Assembly (NCBI GenBank): GCA_963715635.1
Contig: OY970261.1
Span: 2,161,011-2,225,010, forward strand
Source: Candidatus Aminicenantes bacterium
Lineage (GTDB): Bacteria; Acidobacteriota; Aminicenantia; Aminicenantales; UBA4085
DNA: 64,000 bases
Direction: 5' to 3'
Shown here: piece after piece, positions 2,040-31,473 of the stretch
Position numbering within the stretch: position 1 is the first letter of the stretch
Layout of the letters: every line of letters starts with the position of its first letter
The notes under the pieces: generated by a model
Seen by the model: the letters and a program-made list of their open reading frames with translations, nothing else
What the model was told of the DNA's origin: nothing
Databases searched by the model: none
Made by a program: the position numbers and the translations under genes

Positions 2040-2238
2040 AAGGAAGCATGAAAAAAGGAAGCGCGCCTGGCCGGACTCGAACCAGCGACACAGGGATTAG
2101 GAATCCCCTCTAATGGGATTCTGTGTTCTCGGGAAAAATCGGGTTTTCCCCATATTTTTCGTATTTTTCCTTTAAGCACCATTAAGCCAAATTAAGCGAG
2201 TTTAAGCAAATTCTGTGACACCGGCGTGACACGGGGAG
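2040..2238. repeat. Composite repeat unit R1: tRNA-Arg 3' half (2063-2109, minus orientation, tRNA positions ~27-76) plus conserved iteron arm (hairpin GGGAAAAAtcgggTTTTCCCC, TTAAGC x4, GTGACAC x2). attR-like junction next to the host kinase gene
   Basis: Near-identical to the 3' part of the complete tRNA at 29314-29391. The same ~190-bp unit recurs at 3525, 6812 and 14190. Confidence 0.65.
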
Positions 2239-3120: not shown

Positions 3121-3524
3121 TCTTTCTCCTCCTATAATTAAATTTTTTAACACCAAAGAAACTAGTAATCCAAGAATCGTGCCAATTTCAGGCCAGGGAT
3201 ACGTCTGGCCGGCGGATAGATTCCCCTTGAGACAGTCAGGCAGACGAGACTGCTAACGGGAATCCGTTCTTTGATCCGGAAAATAGTCCTGATTGGCAGG
3301 ACTTTTCCCATAGGATTGGATTTTCTTCTTGCGAAAAAAGTTCGGAGCCGGCCGCGCCGCGAGCAGCCTAGACTCCGAGGCTATCTTACGATGATCTCGT
3401 CGAAATTCATCATCGCTGCGGCCTTCGGGGCCGAAACGTCCGGGTGCCACTTGGGCAGGGCTCCGATGTTCTTGGATATCACGTTTGCTTACTCAGGCTT
3501 AAAACAAAAATCAGAAAAATCAGG

Positions 3525-3712
3525 GGAAAAGGGAAGCGCGCCTGGCCGGACTCGAACCAGCGACACAGGGATTAGGAATCCCCTCTGATGGGAATGTGAT
3601 CTCTCGGGAAAAATCGGGTTTTCCCCATATTTTTTTCATTTTTCTTTTAAGCACCATTAAGCCAAGATAAGCGAGTTTAAGCAAATTCTGTGACACCGGC
3701 GTTACACAGGGC
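3525..3712. repeat. Composite repeat unit R2: tRNA-Arg 3' half (3547-3593) plus iteron arm
   Basis: Sequence identity to R1 and R3 across the tRNA fragment, hairpin and TTAAGC/GTTACAC repeats. Confidence 0.65.
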
Positions 3713-4102: not shown

Positions 4103-6625
4103 TCATTCCTCGAAGTGCTCCCATTCAGACTTGAGTTTTTCCATGAGCTTCCTAAACCGGCCCTCCCCGCGGATGTTTCCCAGGTAAGGATCATAGTCAT
4201 TGAGATAAGGATAGTTAAAAAAACCACGGCTGACCGCATTTTCCAGCCAATCCAGGGCTTTCTCCCTATCACCAAGAAGAGCATAAAAATCTGCCATAAA
4301 GCTTGAATACTGCGGGTCGCGCTTGACAGTATAAAGCAATTCAGGGCTTAATCCCCGCGAAAAGTTTTTACGATCGCCTTTGGCTGCATATTTTAAAAGA
4401 AAGTAAAGCTGCCACATGAGATTCTGCTTCGGATCTTCAATGTTCTTTTCGATGATAGCCTCCGCCTCCTTAAGTCCTTTTTTATAAATAAGGAGCCAGG
4501 CATACATGAACAGACCTGGTGGGTCCAGAGGGGGAGCTTTGGAGGTGCGTTCAAAGGCAAGGTCCAGCTGACCTCCATACTGATAGAGTAATGTTTTCGC
4601 GGGCACCGTCTGGGGATTCAGCGGATCAACATCAGACATCCTCTCGGCTATTCTTTCCACAGCGGCCATCTTTCCGATGAAGGCGTATGTAATACAGAGC
4701 CACCACATTATGTCCCCATCATTGGGATTTGCCGCCAGCGCCTTCTTCAGATGATATACACCCTTCTGCTGGTTCCCGAAGAAGGCCGAATTGACCAGCC
4801 CCAAAACTAAATGAGCCTCAGAGGATTCAGGGTCCATCTCCAGGGCTTTATTGGCGAAAATTTCTGCTTTTTTTCCATTTTCTTCGCCCATGATTCCCAG
4901 GTTCGCGCACGAATAATACGCATAACCTATGCCGGCGTCGAGCATGGCATTTTCGCCGACGATCTCGAGGCCTTTTCCGAGATACTGAAGTGCCCGGTCA
5001 CATCCTTCTTTTGTCCAAAGCCCGATTTCTCTTTTGGCCTTGAGATAGAACTCGTAGGCCTGAACATTGTCGATTCGGCGCTCGGATATTTTTTTCTTCT
5101 CTTCCCCGGTCAGCTTCAACCTCAAGGCAGTGATGATGGCGGAGGTTATCTCTTCCTCAATGGCGAAGATATCCTGAAACTTTCGTTCGTATCTTTCTCC
5201 CCAAAGCTGGCTGTTATCGCTCGCCTTGACCAGGGCAGGGCTTATGGAAATTGTCTCTCTAAACCGGACCATTCTGGCGGTTAAAACGGTTTTCACTCCA
5301 AGCTCCCGGCCCACTTTTTTTGGATCGATCTTTTCTCCTTTGTAGGCGAAGGAAGAAGCCCGGGAAATGACCTTTTTAAATACGGATAACTGGGAAAGCT
5401 TGTTGATGAGAGTCTCGGTGATGCCATCGCAGAGGTATTCGGCATCAGGATCTGCGTTTACATTCTCGAAGGGAAGGACCGCGATTGAATCCAGGACCTC
5501 TTCCTCTCCCTTAAACATCAGGAGTTTTGAAATGACAACTAAAGCCAAAAAAACTCCGATTCCTCCAAAAAGCGCTACCTTTTTCCATTTGATTTTGGCC
5601 GTAATCCCGGCCAGCCCGGCTGGAATAAGCGGCTTCTTCTTGGAGAGAAGAGGTTCTGTAACCGTCGTGCGTGTCTCGATTTTTTCAAGCTCCCGACGCA
5701 GTTCTTCAGCATCCTGATATCTTTTTTCTCTGTTTTTTTCCAGGCATTTTAGAATCAGGAGGCTGAGGTTTTCGGGAAGCTGTGAAACCAGCTCTTTAGG
5801 GTCTCGAGGAGCCGCGAGCTTATGCTTCATGGCTATGCTTAGAGGAGTATTCCCTTCGAAGGGAACCTTTCCAGTTACCATTTCATACAAGATTATGCCC
5901 AGGGAATAGATATCAGAGCGCTGGTCTGCCTCTTCACCCTCGGCCTGCTCAGGAGACATGTATTCAGGTGTGCCAATGACTGTTCCTTCGCCGGTGATGC
6001 TTTTCGAATGAATAGACCGGGCAATGCCAAAATCCATAACCTTGGCATTGCCCTCCTTATCCACCATGATGTTGCTCGGCTTTAAATCGCGATGAACGAC
6101 TCCCGTCTTATGCGCCTCCGCCAGGCCCTCACATATTTGCTTGGCTATGGAAATCGATTTGCTGATGGGGAGTTGGCCAAACCTCCTTATCGAGCTCTTG
6201 AGATCCTCGCCCGGGACGTACTCCATCGTGATGAAATGAATGCCGTTCTCCTCCAAGAGATCATACATCCGACCTACATGCGGATGGCTGATCTTGCGGG
6301 CCAGCTTGATCTCGTTGTGAAACCGCTCAAGCATGCTTTTGTTTGTAGCAATCTCTGACATAATCAGCTTGAGGGCCACTTCCTCGTTCAGCTTTTTATC
6401 AACAGCACGATAGACCCGGCCCATACCGCCATGGCCCAATTCCTCAATGATTTGGTATCGGGCGGCAAAAGTGGATCCCGTGGTTAATTCTTCTCTGGGA
6501 GTCTCAAGGGTCTTGGTTTGAAAGCTTTCGACATCCCGAGAAGAAGGGAGCAGAGTTGCACATGCTTTGCAATATTTGGAGTCGGAAGGATTATCGGTCT
6601 GACATTTCGGGCATTTGACGGCCAT
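4103..6625 (-). CDS. Ser/Thr protein kinase with N-terminal zinc ribbon, TM segment and C-terminal TPR-like region (840 aa)
   Basis: CPKCQ...CKAC zinc ribbon. ELGHGGMGRVYRA, HRDLKPSNIMV, DFGIAR, GTPEYMSPEQ kinase motifs. Hydrophobic segment, then repeats. Confidence 0.9.
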   Translation of the reverse strand: MAVKCPKCQTDNPSDSKYCKACATLLPSSRDVESFQTKTLETPREELTTGSTFAARYQIIEELGHGGMGRVYRAVDKKLNEEVALKLIMSEIATNKSMLERFHNEIKLARKISHPHVGRMYDLLEENGIHFITMEYVPGEDLKSSIRRFGQLPISKSISIAKQICEGLAEAHKTGVVHRDLKPSNIMVDKEGNAKVMDFGIARSIHSKSITGEGTVIGTPEYMSPEQAEGEEADQRSDIYSLGIILYEMVTGKVPFEGNTPLSIAMKHKLAAPRDPKELVSQLPENLSLLILKCLEKNREKRYQDAEELRRELEKIETRTTVTEPLLSKKKPLIPAGLAGITAKIKWKKVALFGGIGVFLALVVISKLLMFKGEEEVLDSIAVLPFENVNADPDAEYLCDGITETLINKLSQLSVFKKVISRASSFAYKGEKIDPKKVGRELGVKTVLTARMVRFRETISISPALVKASDNSQLWGERYERKFQDIFAIEEEITSAIITALRLKLTGEEKKKISERRIDNVQAYEFYLKAKREIGLWTKEGCDRALQYLGKGLEIVGENAMLDAGIGYAYYSCANLGIMGEENGKKAEIFANKALEMDPESSEAHLVLGLVNSAFFGNQQKGVYHLKKALAANPNDGDIMWWLCITYAFIGKMAAVERIAERMSDVDPLNPQTVPAKTLLYQYGGQLDLAFERTSKAPPLDPPGLFMYAWLLIYKKGLKEAEAIIEKNIEDPKQNLMWQLYFLLKYAAKGDRKNFSRGLSPELLYTVKRDPQYSSFMADFYALLGDREKALDWLENAVSRGFFNYPYLNDYDPYLGNIRGEGRFRKLMEKLKSEWEHFEE

Positions 6626-6811: not shown

Positions 6812-7010
6812 CGATTTCTCGAGGAAAGGAAAGCGCGCCTGGCCGGACTCGAACCAGCGACACAGGGATTAGGAATCCCTTCTGAGGGGGAATGTGATCT
6901 CTCGGGAAAAATCGAGTTTTCCCCACATTTTTTTCGTTTTTCTTTTAATCACCATTAGTCCGAAGTAGGCGAGTTTTAGCAAAATCTGTTACACCGGCGT
7001 TACACGGAGG
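6812..7010. repeat. Composite repeat unit R3: tRNA-Arg 3' half (6834-6879) plus iteron arm
   Basis: Same architecture and sequence as R1/R2. Confidence 0.65.
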
Positions 7011-10215: not shown

Positions 10216-10550
10216 TTGACCTATAAGCCCGGATTGAAGACCAGCTGCTGTCATCAACCTGGCCTCTGCATCCTCCATTCCTTCTATTTTGCCTTCCTTG
10301 CCTAAAACATCGCGCTAGGATTGTCTAGGACGGGCTTTCTCAAAACGGTCAAGGGCTAGCCTTGCCATTTCCGGCTCCTCCTTGATAAAATTGACAGTGA
10401 AAGGAGGAAGTCAATGGCGGCTTCACACAGCCGCCGAAATTCCAGCAATTTTTTAGGGAGCACCTATCAGAGAAAGCCGGGAGGCCCTCCTCCCGCCGGC
10501 CGCCTTGGACGTGGACCTCGCCGTCCACCAAGAAGGATGAAAGAAAAGAC

Positions 10551-11387
10551 ATGAGCAAAGCCAAAGAAGGCCAGCCGCTGCACTGGGCCGCTCGCAAAGG
10601 CCATAAAGACATAGCCGAGATGCAGCTCGGCCAAGGTGTGGACGTAAACGTCCGGGACGAAGAGGGGCAGACACCGTTGCACTGGGCCGCAACAAGTAAA
10701 GGCCGTAAGGAGATGGTCGAGCTGCTGATCGCCAAAGGAGCGGACGTAAACGCCAAGGATGACGCGGGCCGGACGCCACTACACGCCGCTGCAAGTAAAG
10801 GCCATAAGGACATAGCCGAGTTGCTAATCGCCAATGGCGCGGACGTAAACGCCCGCCGGCGGTTGGACGAAGGAAGCCGCGCGGGCCAGACGCCCCTTCA
10901 CGAGGCCGCTTATGAGGGCAAACTGGACTTGGTCGAGCTACTAATCGCCAAGGGTGCGGATGTAAACGCCAAAGTTAAAGATAGTGACTGGACGCCGCTG
11001 CACGCCGCCGCTTCGGATGGCTTTAAGGACGTGGCGGAGCTGCTGATCGCCAAGGGTGCGGACGTGAATGCTGGGGATGAAACGCCGCTACACTGGGCCG
11101 CAAGCTATGGTCATAAAAACGTGGCCGAGCTGTTGATCGCCAAGGGTGCGGACCTAAACGCCAAGGCCTCCGATGGCTGGACGCCGCTGCACGCCGTCGT
11201 CCACCCCCGCGTGGAATCGCCGTCCAACGCCGCTTGGAGTGGCCACAAGGACGTGGCTGAGCTGTTAATCACCAAGGGCGCGGATGTGAACGCCAAGGAT
11301 GGCTGGGGCAATACGCCGCTACACTGGGCCAAGGAGAAAGGCTACAAGGACGTGGCCGAGCTGCTCAAGAAGCATGGGGCGAAGTGA
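10551..11387 (+). CDS. Ankyrin-repeat protein (about 8 ANK repeats)
   Basis: Repeated 'G.TPLH.AA..GH.D.AELLIAKGADVNAK' units. Strong ~99-bp DNA periodicity. Confidence 0.85.
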   Translation: MSKAKEGQPLHWAARKGHKDIAEMQLGQGVDVNVRDEEGQTPLHWAATSKGRKEMVELLIAKGADVNAKDDAGRTPLHAAASKGHKDIAELLIANGADVNARRRLDEGSRAGQTPLHEAAYEGKLDLVELLIAKGADVNAKVKDSDWTPLHAAASDGFKDVAELLIAKGADVNAGDETPLHWAASYGHKNVAELLIAKGADLNAKASDGWTPLHAVVHPRVESPSNAAWSGHKDVAELLITKGADVNAKDGWGNTPLHWAKEKGYKDVAELLKKHGAK

Positions 11388-11662
11388 TGAGGCGGAGAAT
11401 GGGTCCGTTTGGCAAAAACGCCCAAAACGTTCCCGTTTATACTATTTCCCCGGTCTCTACCTGTCCTGTTTCTCAGGTTTTGCCTTCTCTGCTCAAAAAC
11501 ATCGCAATAGGACGCGCTAGGGCAGAGTTTCTCAAAACGGTCAATGGTCCAGGCTTGCTATTTTCGGCCTCTCAACCGTCCGCCCGCCGTATCACGGGAA
11601 AGGCACGGGAGGGATGGCTGTCTAGTTTGTTCTAAAATGGTCTGACCAGGTAAGGACTTCAA

Positions 11663-12232
11663 TCAAGGACTGTCCAAAATCTTATTGTCATTTATTGGAG
11701 TTAATGACCATGGCTTAGCTCTCACGATTCTTTCTTTTCCAACTACAAACAAAGTAAGAGTAAATATCGCAATATAAGCTAGCGACGAATTGGCGTATTT
11801 AATTCTCGGGCTCAGGGTTTTTCTATCAACAACTTTTAGCATGCTTATTCGTTTTAAATTGTTGCAGTCTTTCGCAATATCCAGTTCATCAAAACTGTTA
11901 ATCATAATATTATGGGCAAAATGATTTCTTTCTCTATTAATGAGCTTTAAATCCTCCATATCCTCTTTAGCTATTAATCCAAGCAGATAACATAGTTTCA
12001 TGCTTCTTTCAAAGTTCAAATTATATTCAATATTTTTAACAAAGAATTCCTCGTCCGCCAATTTTTTCCTTAAGAGCGAATTTAACAAGTTTTCAAGATA
12101 AGCATGAAGCATAATCGCAGCCCCCTTGTCAGTTTCTTTATTAAGAGCTGCATAGTATTTCTGTATTTCATCATTCTTCAAATGTCCTTTATCATCTAAA
12201 AAGACTTCAACGTTTTTTTCCGCTTTTTTCAC
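11663..12232 (-). CDS. HEPN-domain protein (DUF4145/Abi-like), 189 aa
   Basis: All-alpha prediction with the RNxxxH signature (NRERNHFAHN) typical of HEPN RNases. AT-rich gene in an island. Confidence 0.5.
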   Translation of the reverse strand: MKKAEKNVEVFLDDKGHLKNDEIQKYYAALNKETDKGAAIMLHAYLENLLNSLLRKKLADEEFFVKNIEYNLNFERSMKLCYLLGLIAKEDMEDLKLINRERNHFAHNIMINSFDELDIAKDCNNLKRISMLKVVDRKTLSPRIKYANSSLAYIAIFTLTLFVVGKERIVRAKPWSLTPINDNKILDSP

Positions 12233-12355
12233 AGATTTTCCTCCTCTTCCATCGTCTTTCTCTATGAGGCGATTATCCGCGCAAGTGTCATATAATTAAA
12301 CGGGAAGCCATGCCTTAAAGCCTCTGGTTTCTTCCAGGCCTCATTCTTTATCTAT

Positions 12356-12715
12356 TCAATGTTCATGAACAATTTTCCATTCTCCGTTATCTTGCTGTTC
12401 TTTAACAGTATGGTGGTATGTTTTTTTCTCGTGATCAACCGTCAAAATTACTCGTGTTGGCTTTTTCGTTTTCCCGCTTATTTTATTTTCTCCTTTAGAC
12501 AAAAGTCTTTTTTGAGCATCATGATGTTTTGTTTCAAGGAAATCGAGAAATTTTAAATATTCCACGAATTCCTCTTTTATATGCTTGTGCCCGCAAGAAA
12601 GAAAATACGTCACTGCCTGACCGTCAAGAGCTGATTCATAAACGGTTTTCAATATTTCTTTTTCCCCTTTGCACGTGGGACACTCCATTTTGAGAATTTC
12701 CATTCTACCGCCCAT
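12356..12715 (-). CDS. Small zinc-ribbon protein (CPTC...CGH), 119 aa
   Basis: ORF with Cys-x2-Cys and Cys-Gly-His motifs. Same strand and operon position as its neighbours. Confidence 0.4.
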   Translation of the reverse strand: MGGRMEILKMECPTCKGEKEILKTVYESALDGQAVTYFLSCGHKHIKEEFVEYLKFLDFLETKHHDAQKRLLSKGENKISGKTKKPTRVILTVDHEKKTYHHTVKEQQDNGEWKIVHEH

Positions 12716-12844
12716 TTATATTCTGACCTTCCTTAACAGCAGGTCTTCAACGTCGGTCAATCTTATCTCAAGCCCTTGACTCTTTGCTCTCGCGGCCTCT
12801 TCATAAGCGCTTTTGGTAACGCCTCTATTATTCAAGCGTATATC

Positions 12845-13192
12845 TCAATCAAACTTAATGCCCGTGACAATGAAAAGCATCGCGACAAGAAAAATAAACG
12901 CGAGCCCCGCTATAGACGCAAAAACTCCGGCCATGAAGGAATTCATCCAGATTTCTGAACCGAATTTTTTCTTTTCGATGAAGATTTTCCTAAAAAGAAA
13001 ATACACAACAAGGATCGGAGGCAGACAGACGAATGTCAGGAGAACATCCGTGCTGCCAGGCAAAATCTTTATTTTTTGCAGACCGCTGCCTATAGAACCT
13101 AATAGAACGAACCAGCCCCAGCCATATCCCGTTGTTTTTTCAAGAGGGTCCTTCGGTTTAGGTTTTAGATAATCGCCTATTCCCATTATCAA
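12845..13192 (-). CDS. Small integral membrane protein (about 3 TM helices)
   Basis: Hydrophobic helices GWGWFVLLGSIGSGL, LLTFVCLPPILVVYFLF, AGVFASIAGLAFIFLVAMLFIV. An alternative + strand ORF overlaps it. Confidence 0.4.
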   Translation of the reverse strand: MIMGIGDYLKPKPKDPLEKTTGYGWGWFVLLGSIGSGLQKIKILPGSTDVLLTFVCLPPILVVYFLFRKIFIEKKKFGSEIWMNSFMAGVFASIAGLAFIFLVAMLFIVTGIKFD

Positions 13193-13252
13193 CCTCCTCC
13201 TCTTGTGCTATTTAGTCAAATTTTTATGTTTCCAGAGTTTTAAATAACGTTT

Positions 13253-14011
13253 TTAACTCAGATAATTTATTTTTCTTTCTTCATGCACAAGGTAATTGCC
13301 CAGTCTGGGATAACCTCTCTTGAGATCGGATTTATGAAGAGTATTTGATATATGAGCCGCAAAATCGATAACTTCGTCGAAATTCGGTGTGGGAGAGAAA
13401 ACCGTCCATCTATTTTCCTTTTCGACATAATCCCAGCATCCTCTCCCTATTACGCAAATAGCACGTAAAGCTGGCGGTTCATTTTCTTCGATATTTTCTT
13501 TATACCTTTCAATTTCATTTTTGCCGCTCGGGGCTAAATCCGAAGTAAATGCGAAAAGAGCCGGGACTATTTTATTTATGTGATGTTGAATCGGCCTATT
13601 ATTTGTGTCAAAGATTCCCGAGAGGTATATTATGTTACTTAAGATATTTTTTGCTTTATTATGAGCATCTCTGATTTCGGCTGCGGTTATCTTACTTTTA
13701 ACCTCTATCGCATAGAATACTGACTCGGCGGGAAAAAGGTAATCCTCCTCTCCGAACATTATTGAAGGCAACTTTTTCTTGCTATAAATTATTAAATCAA
13801 CCTCACTGGACTGAAACCCGGTGTGATCTATAATTTTCCCTGATATTTTTATTTTGAAATCTTCAGGAAGAATAGGCTCAATTACTCGCTGCGCCGCAAT
13901 TTCTCGAATCTTTCCCATTAAAGGATGTTCAATTCTCGCCGCTTCGGAAAATTCATCCATAGCAGTTCGAACAGAAGTAATTATTCTATTTCTAAATATT
14001 TCGTGTGGCAT
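13253..14011 (-). CDS. Predicted PD-(D/E)xK-family nuclease (252 aa)
   Basis: Motifs GKIIDH...SEVDLIIY...AESVFYAIEVKSK fit the D...(D/E)xK restriction-endonuclease-like core. Heads a 4-gene minus-strand array. Confidence 0.45.
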   Translation of the reverse strand: MPHEIFRNRIITSVRTAMDEFSEAARIEHPLMGKIREIAAQRVIEPILPEDFKIKISGKIIDHTGFQSSEVDLIIYSKKKLPSIMFGEEDYLFPAESVFYAIEVKSKITAAEIRDAHNKAKNILSNIIYLSGIFDTNNRPIQHHINKIVPALFAFTSDLAPSGKNEIERYKENIEENEPPALRAICVIGRGCWDYVEKENRWTVFSPTPNFDEVIDFAAHISNTLHKSDLKRGYPRLGNYLVHEERKINYLS

Positions 14012-14189
14012 TTAATCCCCTCCCTTACGTGATTAACATTTAAATCTTAACTGACGTTAGGACCAAAATCAATCGAACAAAGAAAATCGAAGATAGACTT
14101 CTCCAAAATCTTGTCACCAAATTGTCACAAGAAAAAGTGCCTAAAACCGCCTAATCTTGACTAAGAAGTTAAAAGGGGAAAGAAAGAAT

Positions 14190-14394
14190 TTCTCGGGGAA
14201 AAGGGAAGAGCGCCTGGGGGGACTTGAACCCCCGACAAAGGGATTAGGAATCCATTCTAGCCTGATCCGGGTCCCTCGAGAAAAAACGGTTTTCCCCTTA
14301 TAATCAAGGTTTTCTGATTAACTTTTTTTAGTCTAGATTAAGCGGATTTAAGCAAATTCTGTTACACCATGGTGACACGGGGAGGAGTCTATTT
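14190..14394. repeat. Composite repeat unit R4 (diverged): 3' half of a variant tRNA-Arg (T-arm GGGGGTTCAAGTCCCCC; 14210-14253) plus iteron arm
   Basis: The anticodon-region core ggattaggaatcc is conserved but the T-arm differs from the resident tRNA. The iteron arm is homologous to R1-R3. Confidence 0.6.
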
Positions 14395-14680: not shown

Positions 14681-15265
14681 ATGGATATATGGCAATTAGA
14701 CAAGCTAAGTCTCTTTCTTATATTTTTCTTGCCCGGATTCATTTCGATAAAGATATATGATTTGCTGATTCCTTCCGAAAAAAGAGATTTCTCAAAATCA
14801 TTATTTGAAGTTATAGGATATAGCGCCCTAAATTTTGCGGCGCTTTCTTGGCTGATAATTCTAATTCACTCAGGCTACTTTTATAGAGAACATAAGTTCT
14901 GGTACCTAATAATATTGCTCTTAATTATATTCGTCATTCCTATCTTGTGGCCGATGCTTATTCTAAAAATATTATATTGGTCTCCAATTGCAAACCGAAT
15001 AATCCATCCAATTCTAAAGCCATGGGACTTTGTTTTTGGGAAGAAAAATGTTTGCTGGATAATCGTACACCTTCAAGACGGGAGAAAGATTGGCGGAAAG
15101 TACGACAGAGGATCGTTCGCCTCATCATTTCCTGCCGAAGAACAAATATACTTAGAAGAAGTATGGGAATTGGATGAAAAAGGAGCGTTTAAAAGACCAA
15201 TCGAGAGATCGCGCGGTATTATAGTATTAGGAAAGGATATTTCCTCGATTGAATTTTTTATTTAA
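14681..15265 (+). CDS. Integral membrane protein, hypothetical (194 aa)
   Basis: Several hydrophobic helices (LFLIFFLPGFISI, ALNFAALSWLIILI, YLIILLLIIFVIPILWPMLIL). Confidence 0.45.
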   Translation: MDIWQLDKLSLFLIFFLPGFISIKIYDLLIPSEKRDFSKSLFEVIGYSALNFAALSWLIILIHSGYFYREHKFWYLIILLLIIFVIPILWPMLILKILYWSPIANRIIHPILKPWDFVFGKKNVCWIIVHLQDGRKIGGKYDRGSFASSFPAEEQIYLEEVWELDEKGAFKRPIERSRGIIVLGKDISSIEFFI

Positions 15266-15484
15266 AAAGGAGAATATTATGCCGGACAAAAAGAGCAGGG
15301 TTAACAAAAAACAGGTCGTACAAATACAAGAAGGTTTTCAGCCAGTTAAAAAAGGACACCAGCCAATTAAGGGCGATTTAAATACCGCAAATCCTCCGCA
15401 GGGAGGATCTGGGGTCCCTTTAAAGCCATCAACTAGCAGCGATCGCGATAAGAAGGTTGATAAAAAGTAGGGGATTATAAATAC

Positions 15485-15672
15485 CTGGCTATTTTGATTC
15501 TTCGCAAAGAGGGGAAAATCCGAAGCCCGGACTGTCACGCCGGAGGTCGCGAGTTCGAGCCTCGTCGGCCCCGCCAGTTTTCCCCATATTTTCCCGGTTT
15601 TCCTTTTAGCGCCTTTAAGCCGATTTAAGCGAATTTTAGCAATTTTTGGAACACGGGCGGAACACGGGGAGG
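15485..15672. repeat. Repeat unit R5: 3' fragment of a different tRNA/tmRNA-like gene on + strand (T-arm GCGAG-TTCGAGC-CTCGT, acceptor CGGCCCC-G-CCA ending 15576) followed by a homologous iteron arm (TTAAGC x3, GGAACACGG x2)
   Basis: T-loop and encoded CCA are visible but no complementary 5' acceptor strand upstream. The downstream arm aligns with the R1-R4 arms. Confidence 0.5.
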
Positions 15673-15808
15673 AGTTTGGCACCAGAAGTATTTTAACCCG
15701 ATGGATCAGATGTCCTTTAGGCCACGCGAGCTGTCAATATAGAAATACCCGGTTTGCTTATTGAGGGTTGGGCCTTCATTCACATCAGCGGGGCATGAGA
15801 AATTTTTA

Positions 15809-16093
15809 TTAAAGCTTTATAATGCCCCGATCAATAAGAATCTTTATTAGCTTCTCATGATTAATAGGGCAATCTATAAGTTTCTCGAATTCTCCAATAG
15901 TGAGTGAAAGCTGTTTAGCCATATTTGATAATAGGGGATCTCCATATTCATTAAGATTGTGGCTGATTTTTGTGAAAACACTTGTTTTTTTATTTTTGTA
16001 ATAAAGAAAATAAAAAGTATGATCTCTTTGTTCTTCTTTAAATCCTTTCTTTTTCAATTGATAATCAATATCTCTTGTTTTGCGCGGATTCAT
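15809..16093 (-). CDS. Small hypothetical protein (94 aa), possibly HicA-like fold; last gene of an AT-rich 3-gene operon
   Basis: ORF overlaps the upstream gene by 4 nt. 'LKKKGF...KISH' faintly resembles HicA 'GW...GSH'. Confidence 0.4.
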   Translation of the reverse strand: MNPRKTRDIDYQLKKKGFKEEQRDHTFYFLYYKNKKTSVFTKISHNLNEYGDPLLSNMAKQLSLTIGEFEKLIDCPINHEKLIKILIDRGIIKL

Positions 16094-17040
16094 ATTTTTT
16101 CGACTCTTACTACCAAAGATAATAATAATTTTTTTAATGCTATTGCATCTGAAGTTAAATTTGCATCCTCTTCTTTTGCATAATTATCCCAGATTAAAGC
16201 AAATTCCTCTTCAAAATCTTTTATCGCTTCCTCTCTACTAAAGCTATATGCCCTTATCTTTAAGGGTTCATATTCTATTATTATTAGCGAATCCTCCTTT
16301 CGTACATCACAGGCGATTTCATGCAATAAAATAAACTTCCTGTTTAGCCAGTGAATTTCTGTAGTTCTAAAAGGTCTCAGATCTAATTCCTCGAATAATT
16401 CATAATTCAATACGTTAATTATCTTATCTAGCTTTCCGTCTTCTTTAAGTCTCGCTAGACATCTAGCTGTAATTACTGCTTCAGTTGGTTTCACCTTTTT
16501 TATTCCCTCATAGGGACCTATCAATTTAGTAATTTGATCTTCACTAGGCCGTTCTATTCGCGAGATCATAGGAAAAGCACCAAATCTAAAGGAAACTTCG
16601 TAGTCGGCCTGTTTTTTGGGAAGCACAGGAACCAGCTCATTTAATATTCTCTTTCTATATTCTCCCGATGGAATTGTTTTCTGAATAATTGCACTATTTT
16701 GTTCTTTAATAGCAAAAAAAACATTATTCAAATCCTCTGTTATTTTTTCTCCGAAATCGGGATAATCCGGAAAAAGAAGAGCCTCTTTTTCCGACAGCTC
16801 TAGGGCGGCTGTAAGGCTACCTGGTTCTGCTTTTACAAAAAAGAGTTCAAGCTCTCTTTTCATAATTGATGAGTAAGGTCCTGCACCAGAAGGTTCTCTT
16901 TCTATACGAGAATTTCCTAATATATATGTAGCTTGCTGAATATTTCTCAACGTATTCGATAGAATTGAGATCGGAACTCCGCTTTTTTTTAAACGCTTCG
17001 AAACTATATTAATTAATATTGTTCTCTTAATTTCACCCAT
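16090..17040 (-). CDS. Hypothetical protein (316 aa), AT-rich
   Basis: Long ORF, translationally coupled to the downstream gene. No recognised motif. Confidence 0.5.
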   Translation of the reverse strand: MGEIKRTILINIVSKRLKKSGVPISILSNTLRNIQQATYILGNSRIEREPSGAGPYSSIMKRELELFFVKAEPGSLTAALELSEKEALLFPDYPDFGEKITEDLNNVFFAIKEQNSAIIQKTIPSGEYRKRILNELVPVLPKKQADYEVSFRFGAFPMISRIERPSEDQITKLIGPYEGIKKVKPTEAVITARCLARLKEDGKLDKIINVLNYELFEELDLRPFRTTEIHWLNRKFILLHEIACDVRKEDSLIIIEYEPLKIRAYSFSREEAIKDFEEEFALIWDNYAKEEDANLTSDAIALKKLLLSLVVRVEKI

Positions 17041-17147: not shown

Positions 17148-18449
17148 CTATAATTGCTTTAAAAAATCCTCCGTTCTGTTTTCGTCTGTCAAAAATTCTA
17201 AATATTCTCTAACACTTTCCTGCAATCCAGGTCTGCCCAAAATTATGTTTGCTAATATTCTAAGACGAGAAAGTTGGCCTCGATATAATATTCTCATTTT
17301 TAGGGTTTTATTGTTTTTAGTTGTGTTAATGTATTCGATATCTGCGTTGTGGTCAAATTTCTCAAACAGTTTTTTTATAATTGGGGCGGCAGTATCCGAA
17401 TAAAAATCTTTCCTGGCGTAATGCAGGCTAGATCCTCTATGGCCAACAAATGTTAGCGTTAGTGCCGATACATATCTGCCGACTAGTTCATCAGGAATAT
17501 TTGTCCCGAGATGTTCAAGGTATTGAACGATATTTCCTTCTTTATCCCAATTATCAAGATTTTCCTCTAGCCTCAGGATGGCAGGCTCGAAAACCGCTTT
17601 TCTACTAGCATTCGAAACAAATCCAAATCCATTAATTGAAATTAAAAATTCCATAGCCTTATCTATTTTTTTCTTATTGCCAGAGACAATATCTTGATCA
17701 AAGCGCCTTCCGATTTGGATTCGGTCTTCTTTAGATAAAACGCTCCATAAAATAGGCGCACAAAATTCTATATTTGCTCGTAATACTGTCGAACTGCCCT
17801 CGTTTGTATATACTGTATATAGTTTGTGGATCAATTCATTCTTATATATGAGGGGAAGATCACTGAAGGCTTGTTCCACTGCTATGGAATTTTTATCATA
17901 GTTTTTGCTTTCCATTATAGCTAGGTATTCATCTATATTGATAATTTTTGGAGGGCATTCCTGTGAAAGAACGTATTTATTACAATCATTAATCATATCA
18001 AGCACTTTAATCGGTGATGGCTCAGAACTCTTAGGATGACCATCAAATATATGACGAGTTTCTCTAGCTTGATGAAGAATTTTATGAGCTTCCCAATCGA
18101 TTACTCCTATTTTGTATGCTCCTTCAATTAGTTCATAATCCGTTACGGTATCTTGAAAATCTTCATATCTTTTTATATTTTTTCTCATCTCTTTGTTGAA
18201 AAGATCAAGACTTCTATAAATTATTTTATTTCGGAGATCATCTATAACTGCATTCCAATAATTCCCAATTGCACTTCTATAGCCTTTAACAGTCAATACT
18301 TTTCTTGCTTCAAGAATGTAGGGATTTTCTTTGAGTTCATCTCGAACATTTATAAATGCTTTCCCTATAAAAGCTATTTCTTCATCAGACGATTTATCCA
18401 CTTTTATTATTTTGATTGCGCTGTTTTTCATAAGTTTTTCCTTCCCCAA
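17148..18449 (-). CDS. Hypothetical protein (433 aa) with possible N-terminal HEPN-like motif (RETRHIFDGH)
   Basis: Long AT-rich ORF. The R-x5-H motif sits in an alpha-helical N-terminal region. No other recognisable domain. Confidence 0.5.
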   Translation of the reverse strand: MGKEKLMKNSAIKIIKVDKSSDEEIAFIGKAFINVRDELKENPYILEARKVLTVKGYRSAIGNYWNAVIDDLRNKIIYRSLDLFNKEMRKNIKRYEDFQDTVTDYELIEGAYKIGVIDWEAHKILHQARETRHIFDGHPKSSEPSPIKVLDMINDCNKYVLSQECPPKIINIDEYLAIMESKNYDKNSIAVEQAFSDLPLIYKNELIHKLYTVYTNEGSSTVLRANIEFCAPILWSVLSKEDRIQIGRRFDQDIVSGNKKKIDKAMEFLISINGFGFVSNASRKAVFEPAILRLEENLDNWDKEGNIVQYLEHLGTNIPDELVGRYVSALTLTFVGHRGSSLHYARKDFYSDTAAPIIKKLFEKFDHNADIEYINTTKNNKTLKMRILYRGQLSRLRILANIILGRPGLQESVREYLEFLTDENRTEDFLKQL

Positions 18450-18509: not shown

Positions 18510-19190
18510 TTAGTGGATATAAATTCGACCCGTTTTCTGGACCCTTGTCCCTATATACTGCCGGTCCAGCCAGTCGATGGTATATTGGACATGATCTATC
18601 TGAGACCAGCTGTAGAGGTTAAAGAAGATGGCTTCAAAGACCGCACTTTGTCCGGGTTTGATATCGCCCAAGTCGGCAGGGAATCCGTGGGCCGTGTCGA
18701 GGATGGTATTGCCCGCATTGAGGGCCTGGAAAGAGATCATCACGTTCCAACCCGTCAAGTTTCCGTCATTGCGGACAATCCCGTCAATTTTTGGGCAGTG
18801 ATAGCTAGTCATCCCGTTGGAGGAAGAAGCCAAGACTATCACGGCTCGGCCTTCGACCGTGAACGTGCATTGCCTGGAAGCCGTCCCGTCCGCATTGGTC
18901 GCGGTAAGGGTCCAGGTCGTGGTCTGCGTCGGTTTAGCCTGCTGCGAGCTGGTAGCTGCGACGGAGCCGATGCCTTGGTCGATCGTCACCGAGGTCACGC
19001 CCGAAACATTCCACGAGAGAGTCGCCGTCACGTTCTCTTTATATTTGCACTGAGATGGAGATATCGAGAAATCATTTATGACCGGCGGGTGTTTTTCCGC
19101 CGGAGTGGTAGGAGTGCCTTTGCAAGCGAAACTCACCAGCACTGCCGCTAAATAAAAAACCCCAAAAACTTTTCTCAAACTTTTTTTCAT
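18510..19190 (-). CDS. Secreted/lipoprotein-like protein (226 aa), Thr/Ser-rich with beta-rich domain
   Basis: N-terminus MKKSLRKVFGVFYLAAVLVSFAC is a signal peptide with Cys. Confidence 0.5.
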   Translation of the reverse strand: MKKSLRKVFGVFYLAAVLVSFACKGTPTTPAEKHPPVINDFSISPSQCKYKENVTATLSWNVSGVTSVTIDQGIGSVAATSSQQAKPTQTTTWTLTATNADGTASRQCTFTVEGRAVIVLASSSNGMTSYHCPKIDGIVRNDGNLTGWNVMISFQALNAGNTILDTAHGFPADLGDIKPGQSAVFEAIFFNLYSWSQIDHVQYTIDWLDRQYIGTRVQKTGRIYIH

Positions 19191-19727: not shown

Positions 19728-19827
19728 CCGTGAGAATATTTATTCTTCCAAACGTCTCTCATAATGAGGCGATCAATCGCGAAGAGCGTCATATCGATCC
19801 TGGGGCCTTCGGGCCCAGCTCGCCTCA
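19728..19827. promoter_or_regulatory. ~100-bp intergenic repeat copy A between the TPR and Cys-rich genes. Contains the palindrome GCGATCAATCGC and a GGGCC-cgaa-GGCCC hairpin
   Basis: About 85% identical to 21545-21645. Both sit just after a stop codon and before the next gene's RBS in the same operon. Confidence 0.55.
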
Positions 19828-21531
19828 ATCCGCCGTGAGTTTCTTGAAATATTTATCTTCCCAAAGCCATTTGAAATCTTCGTCACTTTTTGCCGATTTT
19901 TTATTCTTCGGATCAAGCTGGATTGCTTTTGCCAGGGATTTCAAAGCTTCAGATTTACTTTTCATAAGGCTATAACAACAAGCCTTATTGATCCACGCCT
20001 CAGATGAATCCGGGTCCAGCTCAAGGGCTTTCTCATAAGCCTTCAGGGCTTCGTCAGGTCGGTTCAATTTGCCCAGAGTGGCACCCTTGTTGAGCCACGC
20101 GTCGGAATCCCCTGGCTTCAACTCGATGGCTCTCTCATCGGCCTTCAGGGCGTCGTCATGCCGGTTCAATTCGCTCAGAGCGACACCCTTATTGGTCCAT
20201 GCCTCTGCATTGTTAGGATCCAGCTCAAGGGCTTTCTCATAAGCCTTCAGGGCTTCGTCAGGTCGGTTCAATTTGCCCAGAGTGACACCCTTGTTGTACC
20301 ACGCTTCGGAAAAATCCGGTTTCAACTCGATGGCTCTCTCATCGGCCTTCAGGGCGTCGTCATGCCGGTTCAATTCGCTCAGAGCGACACCCTTATTGGT
20401 CCATGCCTCTGCATTGTTAGGATCCAACTCGATGGCTCTCTCCTGAGCTTTCAGGGCGTCATCGAGCCGGTTCAATTCGGCCAGAGCGATACCTTTGTTA
20501 ATCCACGCTTTGGCATCCCCTGGCTTCAACTCAATGGCTCTCTCATAAGATTTCAGGGCGTCGTCATGCCGGTTCAATTCGCTCAGAGCGACACCCTTAT
20601 TGGTCCATGCCTCTGCATTGTTAGGATCCAGCTCAAGGGCTTTCTCATAAGCCTTCAGGGCTTCGTCAGGTCGGTTCAATTTGCCCAGAGTGACACCCTT
20701 GTCGTACCACGTGTTGAAAAAATCCGGTTTCAACTCGATGGCTCTCTCCTGAGCTTTCAGGGCGTCATCGAGCCGGTTCAATTTGCCCAGAGCGATACCA
20801 CTGTTCCTCCACGCTTCCACATAAACCGGATCCAGCTCAATAGCTCGCTTGTATTGTTCAAGAGCATCTAGATATGAACCTCTAAAATAGAAATCATTTC
20901 CGCGCACTAAATAATCATGAGCTTTCAATTTAAGGCCAATAGCTTCTGCGATATCAGTCTTTTGCACGAATTTGTTCATCTGCTGTTTTATCGAATCCGA
21001 AATAACATCGTCTAATTTGACTTTAAGAAGTTGGGGAGTCTTATCTTGAATTTCTTGATAGCTTTTTTCAATATTAGCTATAATCTCATTAAATTTTTTT
21101 GATTTTTCCTCAATGTCTCTCTGCCTTTTTATTATTTCTTCATGGCACTCGATAATGTCTTCGCGCTTTTGCTTAATATCAGCTCTCAATGTATTAATAC
21201 CCCGAAATCCCAAAAAACTTGCAAGTGCTATTCCTAGCATAATTAAGGTTGTAATAGCTCCAATGGCCTTTATAATAAAATCAGATTGATTAATCGATTT
21301 ATCGAACATTCGCTGATTAAATTCAAGAATATCTCGCCAGGTTACATCTTCAGCGCTTCTAATGGGCAGCTGCGGAGATTCTTTCTGCCCTTCTTTATTT
21401 TGTTCTTGTTTTTCTGTTTTTTGTGAGATTTTTTGGTTCTTATTTGCAGGAAGATCTTGTGCTGTCAATATTTGAGCATCTACAGTTAGAAAACCGAGGA
21501 GAATTAAGGCGAGGGGAATGTACTTTTTCAT
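19825..21531 (-). CDS. TPR-repeat protein with N-terminal signal/TM and coiled-coil region (about 568 aa). Start taken at MKKYIPLALILL (GGAGG RBS)
   Basis: At least 12 near-identical 34-aa TPR units (AEAWTNKGVALSELNRHDDALKAYEKALELDPNN). ~102-bp DNA periodicity. Confidence 0.8.
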   Translation of the reverse strand: MKKYIPLALILLGFLTVDAQILTAQDLPANKNQKISQKTEKQEQNKEGQKESPQLPIRSAEDVTWRDILEFNQRMFDKSINQSDFIIKAIGAITTLIMLGIALASFLGFRGINTLRADIKQKREDIIECHEEIIKRQRDIEEKSKKFNEIIANIEKSYQEIQDKTPQLLKVKLDDVISDSIKQQMNKFVQKTDIAEAIGLKLKAHDYLVRGNDFYFRGSYLDALEQYKRAIELDPVYVEAWRNSGIALGKLNRLDDALKAQERAIELKPDFFNTWYDKGVTLGKLNRPDEALKAYEKALELDPNNAEAWTNKGVALSELNRHDDALKSYERAIELKPGDAKAWINKGIALAELNRLDDALKAQERAIELDPNNAEAWTNKGVALSELNRHDDALKADERAIELKPDFSEAWYNKGVTLGKLNRPDEALKAYEKALELDPNNAEAWTNKGVALSELNRHDDALKADERAIELKPGDSDAWLNKGATLGKLNRPDEALKAYEKALELDPDSSEAWINKACCYSLMKSKSEALKSLAKAIQLDPKNKKSAKSDEDFKWLWEDKYFKKLTAD

Positions 21532-21544
21532 AATGCCTCCGTTG

Positions 21545-21645
21545 AGAAAATATATTCTTTCAGACGTCTCTTTTAATGAGGCGATCAATCGCGAAAGCGT
21601 CGTATCGATCCGGGGGCCTTCGGGTCCCCACGCCTCAATTCTCAC
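21545..21645. promoter_or_regulatory. ~100-bp intergenic repeat copy B between the MTase and TPR genes
   Basis: Same sequence family as 19728-19827, including GCGATCAATCGC. Confidence 0.55.
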
Positions 21646-23258
21646 TTAGGCTCTTTGATCTCAAGCTGCTCGGGCTTCTTTCCTTTGAATCTCTCCGCCT
21701 TCTTGAAAGTCGCATCAACCTGTCTGATCGGGGGCATATCAATCTTTTTCCCCGCTAGAAGCTCGGCAACGGTCATTAGTTGGATCTTCGGATATTTCCT
21801 CCCCCAGGTCTTCGACTCATAGAATCCAGCCGTAACGGCTTCGGTTTGCATCGGCTTCGTCGGCTCATCCATAGAAATCAGGACGCCGATTGCGGCTTTC
21901 TCTCGATCGATGACGCCGCGCAGATCTCTGACTTGATTGGCTGTTATGTGTCCCGCTTTCACCTGGAGCTGGACGGTCTCAAATTTGCCGGGCTCGTCTC
22001 CCTGGAAGATAATTTTGCCGTCGATACCTTTATCGGCGCCCTTCTTGACTTCAACGGGTCTAGCCCCAACAAGGCCAAGCGCCCACGCCTGGAATTGGTA
22101 GTAGTCGGAATCTGCAAGCGCCTGGGCATCCGGTACACTGACGGGCTCTCCGATCACTTTGAATTGAGCCTGATTTTCGAAGGTGTCACTCATTCGCTTC
22201 TTTATCAGTGTAATCGCAAGGTGTGTGATGTCAATTCCAATCCACCACCTTTTGAGCTTTTGGGCTGCGGCGATCGTGGTACCACAGCCACAGAACGGAT
22301 CAAGGACTAAATCGCCCTCGTTGCTGCTAGCCTGGATGATCCTTTCTAAAAGAGCCTCCGGTTTTTGAGTAGGATAACCAAGGCGCTCCTGTGCCTGGGA
22401 TTGAACGGGCATTATATCGCTCCATGTATCATCAACTGGCGTCCCTTCTTGTTCATCGAGGTAGCGTTTAAGTGCAGGAACGCGACTCGGCGCAGACTGA
22501 ACGATTAAACCGTTTTTATATGCCTCCTTCATCCGGTCCTCCGTCCAGCGCCAGACGCGTGTTATACCAAGAAATTCGTAAGTAAGGTTCGGTCGGTTCT
22601 TATTAGGATTCGTAAGGTCGGCGAGCCTGTAGCGCCGACCCGTCGATGGTTCTATATATCGATAGAATTTCCGCAAGTATTCCGGGTTATGTTCTGTATA
22701 AACCGGATTCCAAGTCCATTTATCGCCGTGGGAACAGCGCAGGATCGTATCGTGATCTGCCGCAAATCGGGTGAAGGCTAATCCTTTTGCATTTGTTCTC
22801 TTCCAGACTATCTCATTGATAAAACGTTCCGGGCCAAAAATCGCGTCCATAAGCATCTTCAAATAGTGGCTAGCTGCAGGATCACAGTGCAGGTAGATAG
22901 AGGCAGTCGGCTTCATAACCCGGCGCAGTTCGACCAGCCGTGGCGCCATCATGACAAGGTAGGCCAGCATATCGCACGGACCAAGGAATTTTCGGAAAGC
23001 CTCAAGGCAATCAGCGACCTTTCCGCCCTTTGTCACCAGCTCCGCATAAATAGCCTCGTCCTCCTGGCTCCAGGTCCAGGTGTCCTCAAAGGCGCGGATC
23101 TGGCTGGCCGCCTGTGACCCGTTCTTCTCTTTGAAAAGGATGTTGTAGTTTTGGCTGCTCTTAAAGGGTGGGTCGAGATAGACGAGATCAATGCTTTCGT
23201 CTTTGATATACCGTTTCAGAATGTCAAGGTTGTCCCCATAATAAAGTGTGTTTTCCAT
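21642..23258 (-). CDS. DNA methyltransferase (beta-class N6A/N4C, DPPF...FxGxG order) fused to a C-terminal Mrr-like PD-(D/E)xK nuclease domain (538 aa)
   Basis: LVYLDPPF (motif IV) precedes [10 protein letters not shown] (motif I). C-terminus has [10 protein letters not shown]...QVKAG resembling the Mrr catalytic core. 4-nt overlap with the TPR gene. Confidence 0.8.
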
Positions 23259-27864: not shown

Positions 27865-29310
27865 ATGAAGGGGCTTTCGGCACTCCTCACGGCCAGAGAG
27901 ACAAGCAAAGTCTTGGGCATAAGCCTCTCAACCGTTTATCGCCTGGCAGGGCAGAATTGTATTCCCCATATCAAGATGAACGGCCTGGGGCTACGCTTCC
28001 GAGAGGATGATCTCGACGCATGGCTGCAAGGGGGAACCTTTAAGCCCGCTAATCTTGACCCTTACTTGCTTGCTTCTCCCGCCTATGCTATACCTTCTCG
28101 GCATGGAGGTATAAACGGGATGGCCAGCAAGGCCAAATCAAAAACCCGCTTCAATCTAGACTATGGATCGGTTTATATTCGGAAAACCAAAGAGGGGAAA
28201 GAACGTTTTTGCATTGACTATTACAATGCCGATGGCCGCCGTGTCCAGAAGGTTGTGAAGTATGCCGAGAGTTGGGAGGAGGCTGCTGCCGCCTTAAAAG
28301 ATGCCGCCGTCAAGGAATACTGTTTCAAAAATGGGATTGAACCCAAGCCCCGGAATATCAGGTTCAAGGAATTCTCAAAGCTCTATTGGGAAACCCATGT
28401 CAAGGTGAACCGTCGAGGCTGGCAGTCTGAAACGGGCAGGATGGAGAACCTAAAGGCAACCTTCGGGGACATGGATTTGCGAGAGATTAGGCCGATGGAC
28501 GTTGAAAGGTTCAAGCACTCCCGTATTAAAGCCGGAAACAAAGAAAGCACGATCAACCGCTATCTCGCCCTACTCAAGCATATGTTTAATTTTGCTATCA
28601 GCAACGGCTATGCCTCAAAGAATCCGGTCAAGGAAATCAAGCTCTACGCGGAAAAGGAACGGAAGGAAAGAGTCCTGGGCCTGGAAGAAGAAGCCCGGCT
28701 ACTCAAGGTAAGTCCCGACTATCTAAGGCCCATGCTGATTACTGCCATTCATGCGGGCCTCCGGCGCTCGGAGATTATGAATCTCAAGTGGTCAAGCGTG
28801 GATCTGGAAGCCCGGAGAATCAGGGTAGAAGCCGAAAGCGCAAAAAGCGGGAAATTCCGATCCGTCCCCGTTAACTCCGCCCTCCATGCTGCCCTACTCG
28901 CTCAAAAGGCCGCAAACGGAAAGAGCCCGTATGTTTTCCCCAATGAGGACACAGGGAAGCCCTACACGACACTAGCAAGGGTTTTTATGCGGGCCTGTAA
29001 GGATGCAGAAATTAAGGGGCTCACGCTTCACGATTTGCGCCGCAGTTTTGCATCGAGGCTACTTGAGGAAGGTGCGTCCATTGAGATAGTCAAATCCTTG
29101 CTCGGCCATCACAGCATAACAGTTACCGAAAGATACACTCATTCCAGCGAAGAAGCCAAGAGAAGAGCGGTTGAACGGTTGGCCGAGAAGTCCATCAAAG
29201 AAGGCGAAAACAGGGATTCTCTGTTACGTGGTGGTGACCTGAAAGAGTCGTCTTTTTGGCCAGACTTCAATTCTCTGAAGGCGGTAACTCCATCATGCTC
29301 AATGAATTAA
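27865..29310 (+). CDS. int: Tyrosine-type site-specific integrase with N-terminal excisionase-like HTH domain (481 aa)
   Basis: N-terminal HTH (TARETSKVLGISLSTVYRLA). Catalytic motifs LRRSEIMNLKW (R), HDLRRSFAS (H-x-x-R), HHSITVTERYTH (Tyr). Stop lies 4 nt from the tRNA 3' end. Confidence 0.9.
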   Translation: MKGLSALLTARETSKVLGISLSTVYRLAGQNCIPHIKMNGLGLRFREDDLDAWLQGGTFKPANLDPYLLASPAYAIPSRHGGINGMASKAKSKTRFNLDYGSVYIRKTKEGKERFCIDYYNADGRRVQKVVKYAESWEEAAAALKDAAVKEYCFKNGIEPKPRNIRFKEFSKLYWETHVKVNRRGWQSETGRMENLKATFGDMDLREIRPMDVERFKHSRIKAGNKESTINRYLALLKHMFNFAISNGYASKNPVKEIKLYAEKERKERVLGLEEEARLLKVSPDYLRPMLITAIHAGLRRSEIMNLKWSSVDLEARRIRVEAESAKSGKFRSVPVNSALHAALLAQKAANGKSPYVFPNEDTGKPYTTLARVFMRACKDAEIKGLTLHDLRRSFASRLLEEGASIEIVKSLLGHHSITVTERYTHSSEEAKRRAVERLAEKSIKEGENRDSLLRGGDLKESSFWPDFNSLKAVTPSCSMN

Positions 29311-29391: not shown

Positions 29392-29424
29392 CGCAGGATC
29401 GAAAGAGATTATAAACCGCTGATT

Positions 29425-31189: not shown

Positions 31190-31202
31190 GAAGATCTCCT
31201 TT

Positions 31203-31379: not shown

Positions 31380-31473
31380 GCCTTTCTCTATCCTTTATAA
31401 GTATCTGTAAGTATCTACTAATATCATTAAATATCTGCTTTGTCAAGAAGAATTTTACATTGATCCATGGAAT

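Follow-up and report, generated by a model that had tools for sequence, protein, structure and literature searches.

Do four neighboring genes that look like an operon make up one defense system, or did they come together one at a time? This question is raised by positions 11663 to 14011 of a 64,000-nucleotide stretch of contig OY970261.1 (here called the window) from Candidatus Aminicenantes bacterium. The minus strand of this region carries four open reading frames (ORFs) in the same direction, referred to here as genes A to D, which are separated by spacers of 66 (A-B), 129 (B-C), and 123 nt (C-D). The GC content is 0.36 to 0.40 over 11.5 to 14 kb, compared with 0.59 directly upstream and ∼0.50 in the rest of the window, and the low-GC block reaches on to ∼18.5 kb. 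A preliminary description of this DNA had noted four co-directional genes in a low-GC block, as was borne out by the ORF positions and the GC profile, and had proposed that a PD-(D/E)xK nuclease, a protein with three transmembrane segments, a zinc-ribbon protein, and a HEPN RNase together form a novel defense or abortive-infection system. Comparison with related loci favors a different answer: we consider it likely that single-gene modules, each acquired independently, make up the block like a patchwork and that they are cargo of a strain-specific, serially accreted island at tRNA-Arg(CCT) and do not constitute one system.

Genes A to D in related genomes and the island that carries them

Ratios of nonsynonymous to synonymous substitution rates (dN/dS) against the closest relatives were below 1 for all four genes (A, 0.29; B, 0.23; C, 0.21; D, 0.67). 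All of them therefore appear to be under purifying selection and to be genuine genes rather than chance ORFs, B and C included. To judge whether they belong together, loci with homologs of A were sampled from genomes (26 loci) and metagenomes (80 loci), 106 in total; the genome loci included Halobacteria, ANME-1, Methanotrichaceae, Aminicenantes, Planctomycetota, Anaerolineales, and several Burkholderiales. tblastn searches of these loci with B, C, D, and the other genes of the block (B to I) found nothing next to the A homologs, and at none of the 106 loci did the four genes occur together. When 557 neighboring ORFs from 97 of the A-homolog loci were clustered, no family was present at more than three loci. 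The 120 nearest neighbors comprised 101 Pfam families, none of which was found more than twice, and represented a mix of housekeeping genes, transposases, and occasional defense-type domains (TIR, AbiEii-like ATPase, HNH, CHAT). We also considered partners that would be analogous without being homologous and rejected them, as a scan of the ORFs flanking A homologs for transmembrane, CxxC, or R[NDH]xxxH features revealed no recurring transmembrane/zinc-ribbon/HEPN pattern. In general, members of the A family occur as solo genes in both archaea and bacteria.

Related metagenome contigs gave a consistent picture for all four genes. Each contig matched one gene of the block at 75 to 95% DNA identity and had differing neighbors, with homology breaking off at the gene boundaries, so that each gene stood alone in its close relatives and the proposed single system was not upheld. 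In the three contigs with the closest relatives of A (L027, L028, and L035), a stretch of ∼55 bp separates the stop codon of A from the same 43 bp that in the window precede the start of D; an insertion sequence element and a TIR-domain protein come next. Relative to the closest relatives of A, B and C therefore represent an indel, and they would be lineage-restricted genes placed between A and the leader of D.

The two intervening genes are poorly connected to known families. B contains two hydrophobic segments above the Kyte-Doolittle threshold and a weaker third one recognized by eye, so that of the three transmembrane segments first described, two stood and the third was doubtful. No match to B was found in Pfam, PADLOC, NCBIfam, or PHROG, and its 89% identical homolog lies amid other genes in contig L032. 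B is predicted to be a small integral membrane protein, and it does not seem to accompany A, C, or D in a conserved manner. C carries the motif CxxC(x25)CxH, in line with the zinc-ribbon assignment, and these residues are kept in its single homolog (66% identity) among 5.8 billion clusters. It had no significant match in the same four collections and is, as judged from these searches, a zinc-ribbon-like near-ORFan. On the contig of its homolog (L033), another gene precedes C, and the same structured element as in the window follows it.

This structured intergenic element occupies the C-D spacer. Its outer stem, TGAGGCG...CGCCTCA (TGAGGCc in the C-D copy), surrounds a GC-rich hairpin, and two further copies lie elsewhere in the window (Table 1). 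Additional copies were detected in L032 (4990-5108) and L033 (∼480-589), and the 3' part was present in L027, L028, and L035. The copies are placed right after stop codons and right before the ribosome-binding site of the next gene. Rfam contained no match to the element, the four copies gave no covariation support, and fold z-scores were -2.3 and -1.8 for two short copies and -0.4 for the C-D copy. The element appears to be a lineage-specific repeat and could be a terminator, a repetitive extragenic palindromic (REP)-like element, or a recombination site. Folding was no better than that of shuffled sequences in the A-B and B-C spacers and upstream of A; the block is therefore unlikely to be an attC-type cassette array. 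An integron cassette array was rejected as well, since the structured element is found in the C-D spacer alone, attC sites are absent, and the integrases are not IntI: they scored far below the cutoffs of integron-integrase models and matched XerC/D-type models best. As far as the compared contigs indicate, the gene-sized mosaicism is clean.

The genomic setting of the block likewise points to accretion. Self-blastn and alignment revealed four tandem attachment (att)-like units, each consisting of a copy of the 3' half of tRNA-Arg followed by a conserved ∼150-bp element end containing GTGACAC...GTTACAC. The segments between these copies measure 1.4, 3.2, 7.3, and 15 kb, and an integrase gene is present only in the last. 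Genes A to D occupy the segment from 6.9 to 14.2 kb, which has no integrase of its own. The repeat pattern is that expected of, and points to, repeated integration into the anticodon-loop region of a tRNA gene. In a related strain (L034), which is 94 to 96% identical in the RecD2, Tgt, and MscS-like flank, tRNA-Arg lies directly beside the MscS-like gene, and the locus holds just a 1.9-kb insert. The tandem tRNA-Arg 3'-half copies and the small insert in L034 corroborate the integrative setting of the preliminary description, comparison of the two strains indicates that the island is strain-specific, and the repeats point to its serial accretion at tRNA-Arg(CCT).

A NucC-fold nuclease and a HEPN-fold protein

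Protein A matched the Pfam family DUF6602 (PF20247) with an E value of 5.8e-23 (81.2 bits versus a cutoff of 27). Its best match in PADLOC was "PD_DExK, CRISPR-associated" (5e-26), followed by NucC (5.5e-18 and 7e-15); a PADLOC check thus recognized A, and nothing was found for B and C. NucC is here the cyclic triadenylate (cA3)-activated DNA endonuclease of type III CBASS (antiphage signaling based on cyclic oligonucleotides) and type III-B CRISPR (PDB 6p7o, 6p7p, 6q1h, 6uxf, and 7zgv). Solved NucC structures were matched by the sequence of A at 8e-8 and, in the PDB, by its family profile at 1e-20. An AlphaFold (AF2) model of A with a mean predicted local distance difference test (pLDDT) score of 92.7 superimposed on five NucC structures over its full length (Foldseek template modeling scores of 0.72 to 0.81, ∼240 columns). 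In contrast, the next-best Foldseek matches, type II restriction enzymes, scored only ∼0.3, so A is modeled as a NucC-fold protein and not merely as a generic PD-(D/E)xK core.

The putative active site of A, V71-D72-x30-E103-V104-K105, corresponds to the IDx30EAK site of NucC (Lau et al., bioRxiv 10.1101/694703): D72, E103, and K105 align to NucC D73, E104, and K106 and are invariant in 32 homologs. A further ∼14 positions are invariant in the family across bacteria and archaea. The motifs quoted at the outset for the two putative enzymes, SEVDLIIY...AIEVKSK in A and NRERNHFAH in D, are indeed present, and they are unlikely to be chance matches because their catalytic residues are conserved across homologs (n = 32 for A and n = 80 for D). 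The initial view of the 252-aa protein as a restriction-endonuclease-like nuclease was thus sustained by the DUF6602 match and by similarity to NucC in sequence and fold, and we regard A as a predicted PD-(D/E)xK DNA endonuclease of NucC fold in the DUF6602 family.

A resembles NucC in its full-length fold, in its IDx30EAK-type active site, and in size (252 versus 241 aa), but differs from it in the residues used for activation, at an overall identity of 16 to 19%. NucC homotrimers pair into hexamers upon cA3 binding; cA3 is contacted by R53, Y81, and T226/V227, a gate loop is latched by H136/Y141, and R53, Y81, H136, and Y141 are all needed for activation by cA3 (bioRxiv 10.1101/694703). NucC R53 corresponds to D51 in A; the family column contains D, G, Q, E, or H, and R does not occur in it. 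Y81 corresponds to K80, where the family has K, I, N, V, L, T, R, or H but no aromatic residue. A loop of the length of the NucC gate loop is present, with no conserved His or Tyr at the positions aligned to H136/Y141. Hidden Markov model and hhalign alignments with NucC stop at NucC residue 203, short of T226/V227. Also unlike NucC, A has no CD-NTase, HORMA/Trip13, or Cas10 neighbor in the window or at the 97 loci. PADLOC and Pfam searches of the A neighbors and the large window ORFs found no cyclase and no Cas gene among the ORFs tested, and neither gene type recurred at the 97 loci; a CBASS or type III CRISPR context was accordingly rejected. Judged from these substitutions, A probably does not use cA3.

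Another parallel is offered by Damona, a validated single-gene anti-phage cassette that lies in the chromosomal integron of Vibrio cholerae (Darracq et al., bioRxiv 10.1101/2024.07.02.601686). Damona is characterized by DUF6602, Cas PD_DExK, and small CBASS endonuclease signatures, and most systems in that study were single genes (bioRxiv 10.1101/2024.07.02.601686). A shows the same three profile signatures, and both are solo genes on mobile elements. They differ in that A is carried by a tRNA-targeting integrative island and not by an integron cassette, and the closest relatives of A are found not in Vibrio or Acinetobacter but in sediment-type metagenomes, archaea, and diverse bacteria. An origin of A from phages was considered and rejected: tblastn with A found no match in a phage collection of 50,697 records, and IMG/VR contained only three relatives. 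Taken together, the comparison suggests that A is probably a stand-alone, Damona-type defense DNase. It would act alone, held inactive until infection by means other than cA3, and would then degrade DNA.

Protein D (189 aa) has the helical fold of HEPN proteins and carries the motif R102-N103-H104-F105-A106-H107. Only two close homologs were found; an exhaustive HMMER search yielded 1,687 representative relatives. Among 80 aligned relatives, R102, N103, F105, and H107 were at least 90% conserved, and 44 matched Pfam MtlR at E ≤ 1e-3. A search with the family profile of D yielded MtlR structures (4e-8 and 1e-6) and a weak match to HepS, and the nearest solved relatives of D were the MtlR and YggD regulators. 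MtlR belongs to the HEPN superfamily, whose members keeping Rx4-6H are predicted RNases (Anantharaman et al., PMC3710099). The original reading of D as a HEPN protein with RNxxxH hence agrees with the fold and with an intact Rx4H conserved in relatives, and the sequence places D in an MtlR/YggD/HepS clade of HEPN-fold proteins.

HepS ("HEPN Solo"), encoded by the Salmonella Gifsy-1 prophage, is an anticodon nuclease that acts in abortive infection (PMC13043305; PDB 9oij and 9oik). It is self-sufficient: it has no partner genes, carries Rx4H at R100-H105, and forms a latent tetramer (PMC13043305). D resembles HepS as a HEPN protein with intact Rx4H. It differs from MtlR/YggD (PF05068, mannitol-operon regulators) in that it does not lie in a mannitol operon and keeps the RNxxxH, which is missing from many MtlR members. 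D is probably a solo RNase that serves as a toxin or as an effector of abortive infection; as a latent RNase, it would act alone, as HepS does. With solo HEPN defense known from HepS and DUF6602 from Damona, the gene kinds in the block are not undescribed.

Two further observations concern D. Residues 146 to 165 (YIAIFTLTLFVVG) form a strongly hydrophobic C-terminal segment, helical in the model, that could anchor the protein in a membrane or serve as a surface for oligomerization. In addition, the closest homolog of D adjoins tRNA-like sequence (∼300-600 of L030), and in that organism D also appears to be located at the edge of a tRNA-associated insertion.

Alternative readings of the block

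Several observations weigh against a patchwork of stand-alone modules and are taken here together with the alternatives that they bear on. The likeness of A to Damona rests on a shared domain signature, in which DUF6602 covers only the N-terminal 100 residues of A. Moreover, several residues of A that lie outside the active site are invariant in the family (R36, R169, W193, W202, and E213) and, together with the gate-length loop, may leave room for another allosteric ligand. These residues, the loop, the full NucC fold including its non-core embellishments, and the best PADLOC match of A to a CRISPR-associated profile would fit a trans-acting second-messenger effector like NucC, with the cyclase encoded elsewhere in the genome and a ligand that is possibly not cA3. 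We consider such an effector unlikely, as the four residues required for activation of NucC are not conserved, no cyclase or Cas gene recurs near A or was found among the tested window ORFs, and the family spreads as a solo gene across both domains. A bolder idea, which we regard as doubtful, is that the A subfamily represents NucC-fold nucleases with a remodeled allosteric pocket, which would sense either another nucleotide made in trans or a phage component directly. In a weaker variant of this idea, B and C would have been recruited in this lineage as modulators between A and D, resulting in a composite system.

As for D, its solo status rests on five sampled contexts, and in three distant relatives a tightly linked gene lies upstream. 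HEPN toxins are commonly paired with an upstream antitoxin (PMC3710099), the linked genes of the three distant relatives are small, and a HicA-like toxin match is located nearby (15809-16093). The genes could thus be addiction or toxin-antitoxin-type modules that stabilize the island and are not directed against phages, for example, with D as a HEPN toxin neutralized by the upstream C. This is rather improbable, however. The three upstream genes show no relationship with one another or with C, on which ground C was rejected as a partner of D, and the closest D homolog (L030, 88% DNA identity) has no C upstream. In contrast to HEPN-MNT pairs, no minimal nucleotidyltransferase (MNT) lies beside D; Pfam and NCBIfam searches found no nucleotidyltransferase signature in B or C, and C has no other antitoxin signature. 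The 123-nt C-D spacer is also not a coupled arrangement.

D itself scored below the Pfam cutoffs both for MtlR (PF05068; 17.4 versus 25.2 bits) and for HEPN_Cthe2314 (19.1 versus 27.1 bits), and part of the MtlR family is non-catalytic, with many members lacking the motif (PMC3710099). The block might then have no role in defense, with D as an MtlR-like regulator lacking catalytic activity and A as an orphan nuclease of restriction type that is decaying and carried passively. The MtlR and YggD regulators as nearest solved relatives of D, the dN/dS of D, and the lack of a methyltransferase beside A would be in agreement with this. Nevertheless, it is very unlikely: D keeps the RNxFAH that was lost in non-catalytic MtlR members (PMC3710099) and lies outside a mannitol operon, and the catalytic residues and other invariant positions of A, together with its dN/dS of 0.29, do not form a pattern of decay.

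Finally, terminator prediction found none on the minus strand of the four-gene block, and with co-directional genes and short spacers, co-transcription of A to D in the Candidatus Aminicenantes host is possible. Even so, one integrated novel defense or abortive-infection system of DNase, membrane component, zinc-ribbon protein, and HEPN RNase is hardly credible, since this shared layout, the common low GC content, and effector-type domains in two of the four genes are set against the lack of co-occurrence at the 106 loci and of any analogous architecture, the solitary state of each gene in close relatives, and the missing B and C in the three closest relatives of A. The patchwork of separately acquired modules is thus the reading that we prefer.

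Further island features and wider meaning

Coordinates of the genes, modules, and island features are given in Table 1. For B, the likelier start is an ATG behind a strong ribosome-binding site, which matches the gene calls of public assemblies; for C, the downstream ATG is favored by public gene calls and a ribosome-binding site. D starts with GTG, preceded by GGAAGAGGAGG.

Table 1. Window coordinates of genes A to D, their modular units, and features of the tRNA-Arg(CCT) island
Feature	Position	Strand	Remarks
Gene A	13253-14011	-	252 aa
Gene B	12845-13192 as ORF; likelier 12845-13186	-	113 aa from likelier start; small membrane protein
Gene C	12356-12715 as ORF; favored 12356-12703	-	115 aa from favored start; CxxC...CxH zinc-ribbon-like
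Gene D	11663-12232	-	189 aa; HEPN-fold
A unit	13252-14098		Homology in L027, L028, L035
B unit	12720-13187		Homology in L032
C unit	12251-12717		Homology in L033
D unit	11649-12248		L030
D unit	11597-12044		L031
Structured intergenic element	12235-12350	-	∼100 nt; C-D spacer; ends in ribosome-binding site of D
Structured element, further copy	19731-19829	-	After TPR gene
Structured element, further copy	21543-21639	-	After methyltransferase-restriction endonuclease gene
att-like unit	2052-2238		tRNA-Arg 3' half at 2061-2107 (100% identical)
att-like unit	3523-3711		tRNA-Arg 3' half at 3536-3582 (100% identical)
att-like junction, far boundary of cassette segment	6764-7019	+	tRNA-Arg 3' half at 6833-6881 (100% identical) and element end
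att-like junction, upstream boundary of cassette segment	14138-14390	+	Degenerate tRNA-Arg 3' half at 14210-14256 (85% identical) and element end
Tyrosine integrase gene	27865-29310		Adjoins tRNA-Arg; Pfam Phage_integrase 3e-30
tRNA-Arg(CCT)	29315-29392	-	Intact; integration target of the island; ARAGORN and Rfam; sole tRNA in window

When the tRNA-like repeats were searched with Rfam, the true tRNA alone matched. At 15480-15690, the element-end sequence of the tRNA-Arg repeats directly adjoins the 3' end of another tRNA (...GGTCGCGAGTTCGAGCCTCGTCGGCCCCGCCA, plus strand), which suggests past use of a second tRNA site by an element of the same family; L034 matches 15533-15587 at 91%. A second integrated element (29425-40046) lies on the 5' side of tRNA-Arg and is missing from L034. 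Genes within it encode a tyrosine recombinase (29425-30582) and an AAA_25 protein (36264-37652). The boundary of this element is formed by a copy of the tRNA-Arg 5' half with 97.7% identity (40004-40046). Beyond 40 kb, the window consists of ordinary chromosome. Just downstream of gene D, at the GC boundary, a direct repeat of ∼90 bp (11478-11568 and 10287-10375, 78% identical) flanks an ankyrin-repeat gene (10551-11387).

The island carries additional cargo. Divergent from gene A and between two element-end repeats lies a gene for a DUF6338 membrane protein (14681-15265, plus strand; E = 4e-41), which is kept together with A, B, and C in a contig from the same organism (L029). On the minus strand, a gene for a 94-aa protein (15809-16093) with a weak match to the PHROG "toxin" family phrog_353 (1e-4), possibly HicA-like, shares 4 bp with the end of the gene lying upstream, which encodes a 316-aa protein without matches (16090-17040); the two could be a toxin-antitoxin pair. 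At higher coordinates, the same strand carries genes for a 433-aa protein (17148-18449; phrog_27609, function unknown, 8e-93) and a 226-aa protein (18510-19190; "virion structural protein" PHROGs, 6e-15), both of which are, according to these matches, phage-derived and located within the integrase-bearing element. The region 19825-23258 (minus strand) encodes a 538-aa fusion of an N6/N4 DNA methylase and an Mrr_cat/NA-iREase1 nuclease domain, directly upstream of a 606-aa TPR protein built of 102/204-bp tandem repeats, and may represent a fused restriction-modification or defense module. An 840-aa protein with a zinc ribbon, a Ser/Thr kinase domain, and TPR repeats (4103-6625, minus strand) matches the PADLOC PD-T4-6 kinase models at 1e-102; its gene lies alone in the 3.2-kb att-bounded segment and is a candidate for a further single-gene defense module.

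In summary, co-directional effector-type genes in a low-GC patch can resemble an operon-encoded system, whereas comparison reveals gene-sized modules that travel separately, and the tRNA-Arg locus displays both serial accretion of elements and gene-by-gene mosaicism. Neither the NucC-fold subfamily nor the tRNA-Arg mosaic represents a new category of system, A and D being of kinds already described. If the doubtful idea of a remodeled pocket were true, A would be a self-contained sensor-effector derived from a second-messenger effector. In any case, a large cross-domain NucC-fold subfamily with neither a recognizable cA3 pocket nor a cyclase partner is relevant to the question of how single-gene nucleases of the Damona type are held inactive and become activated.

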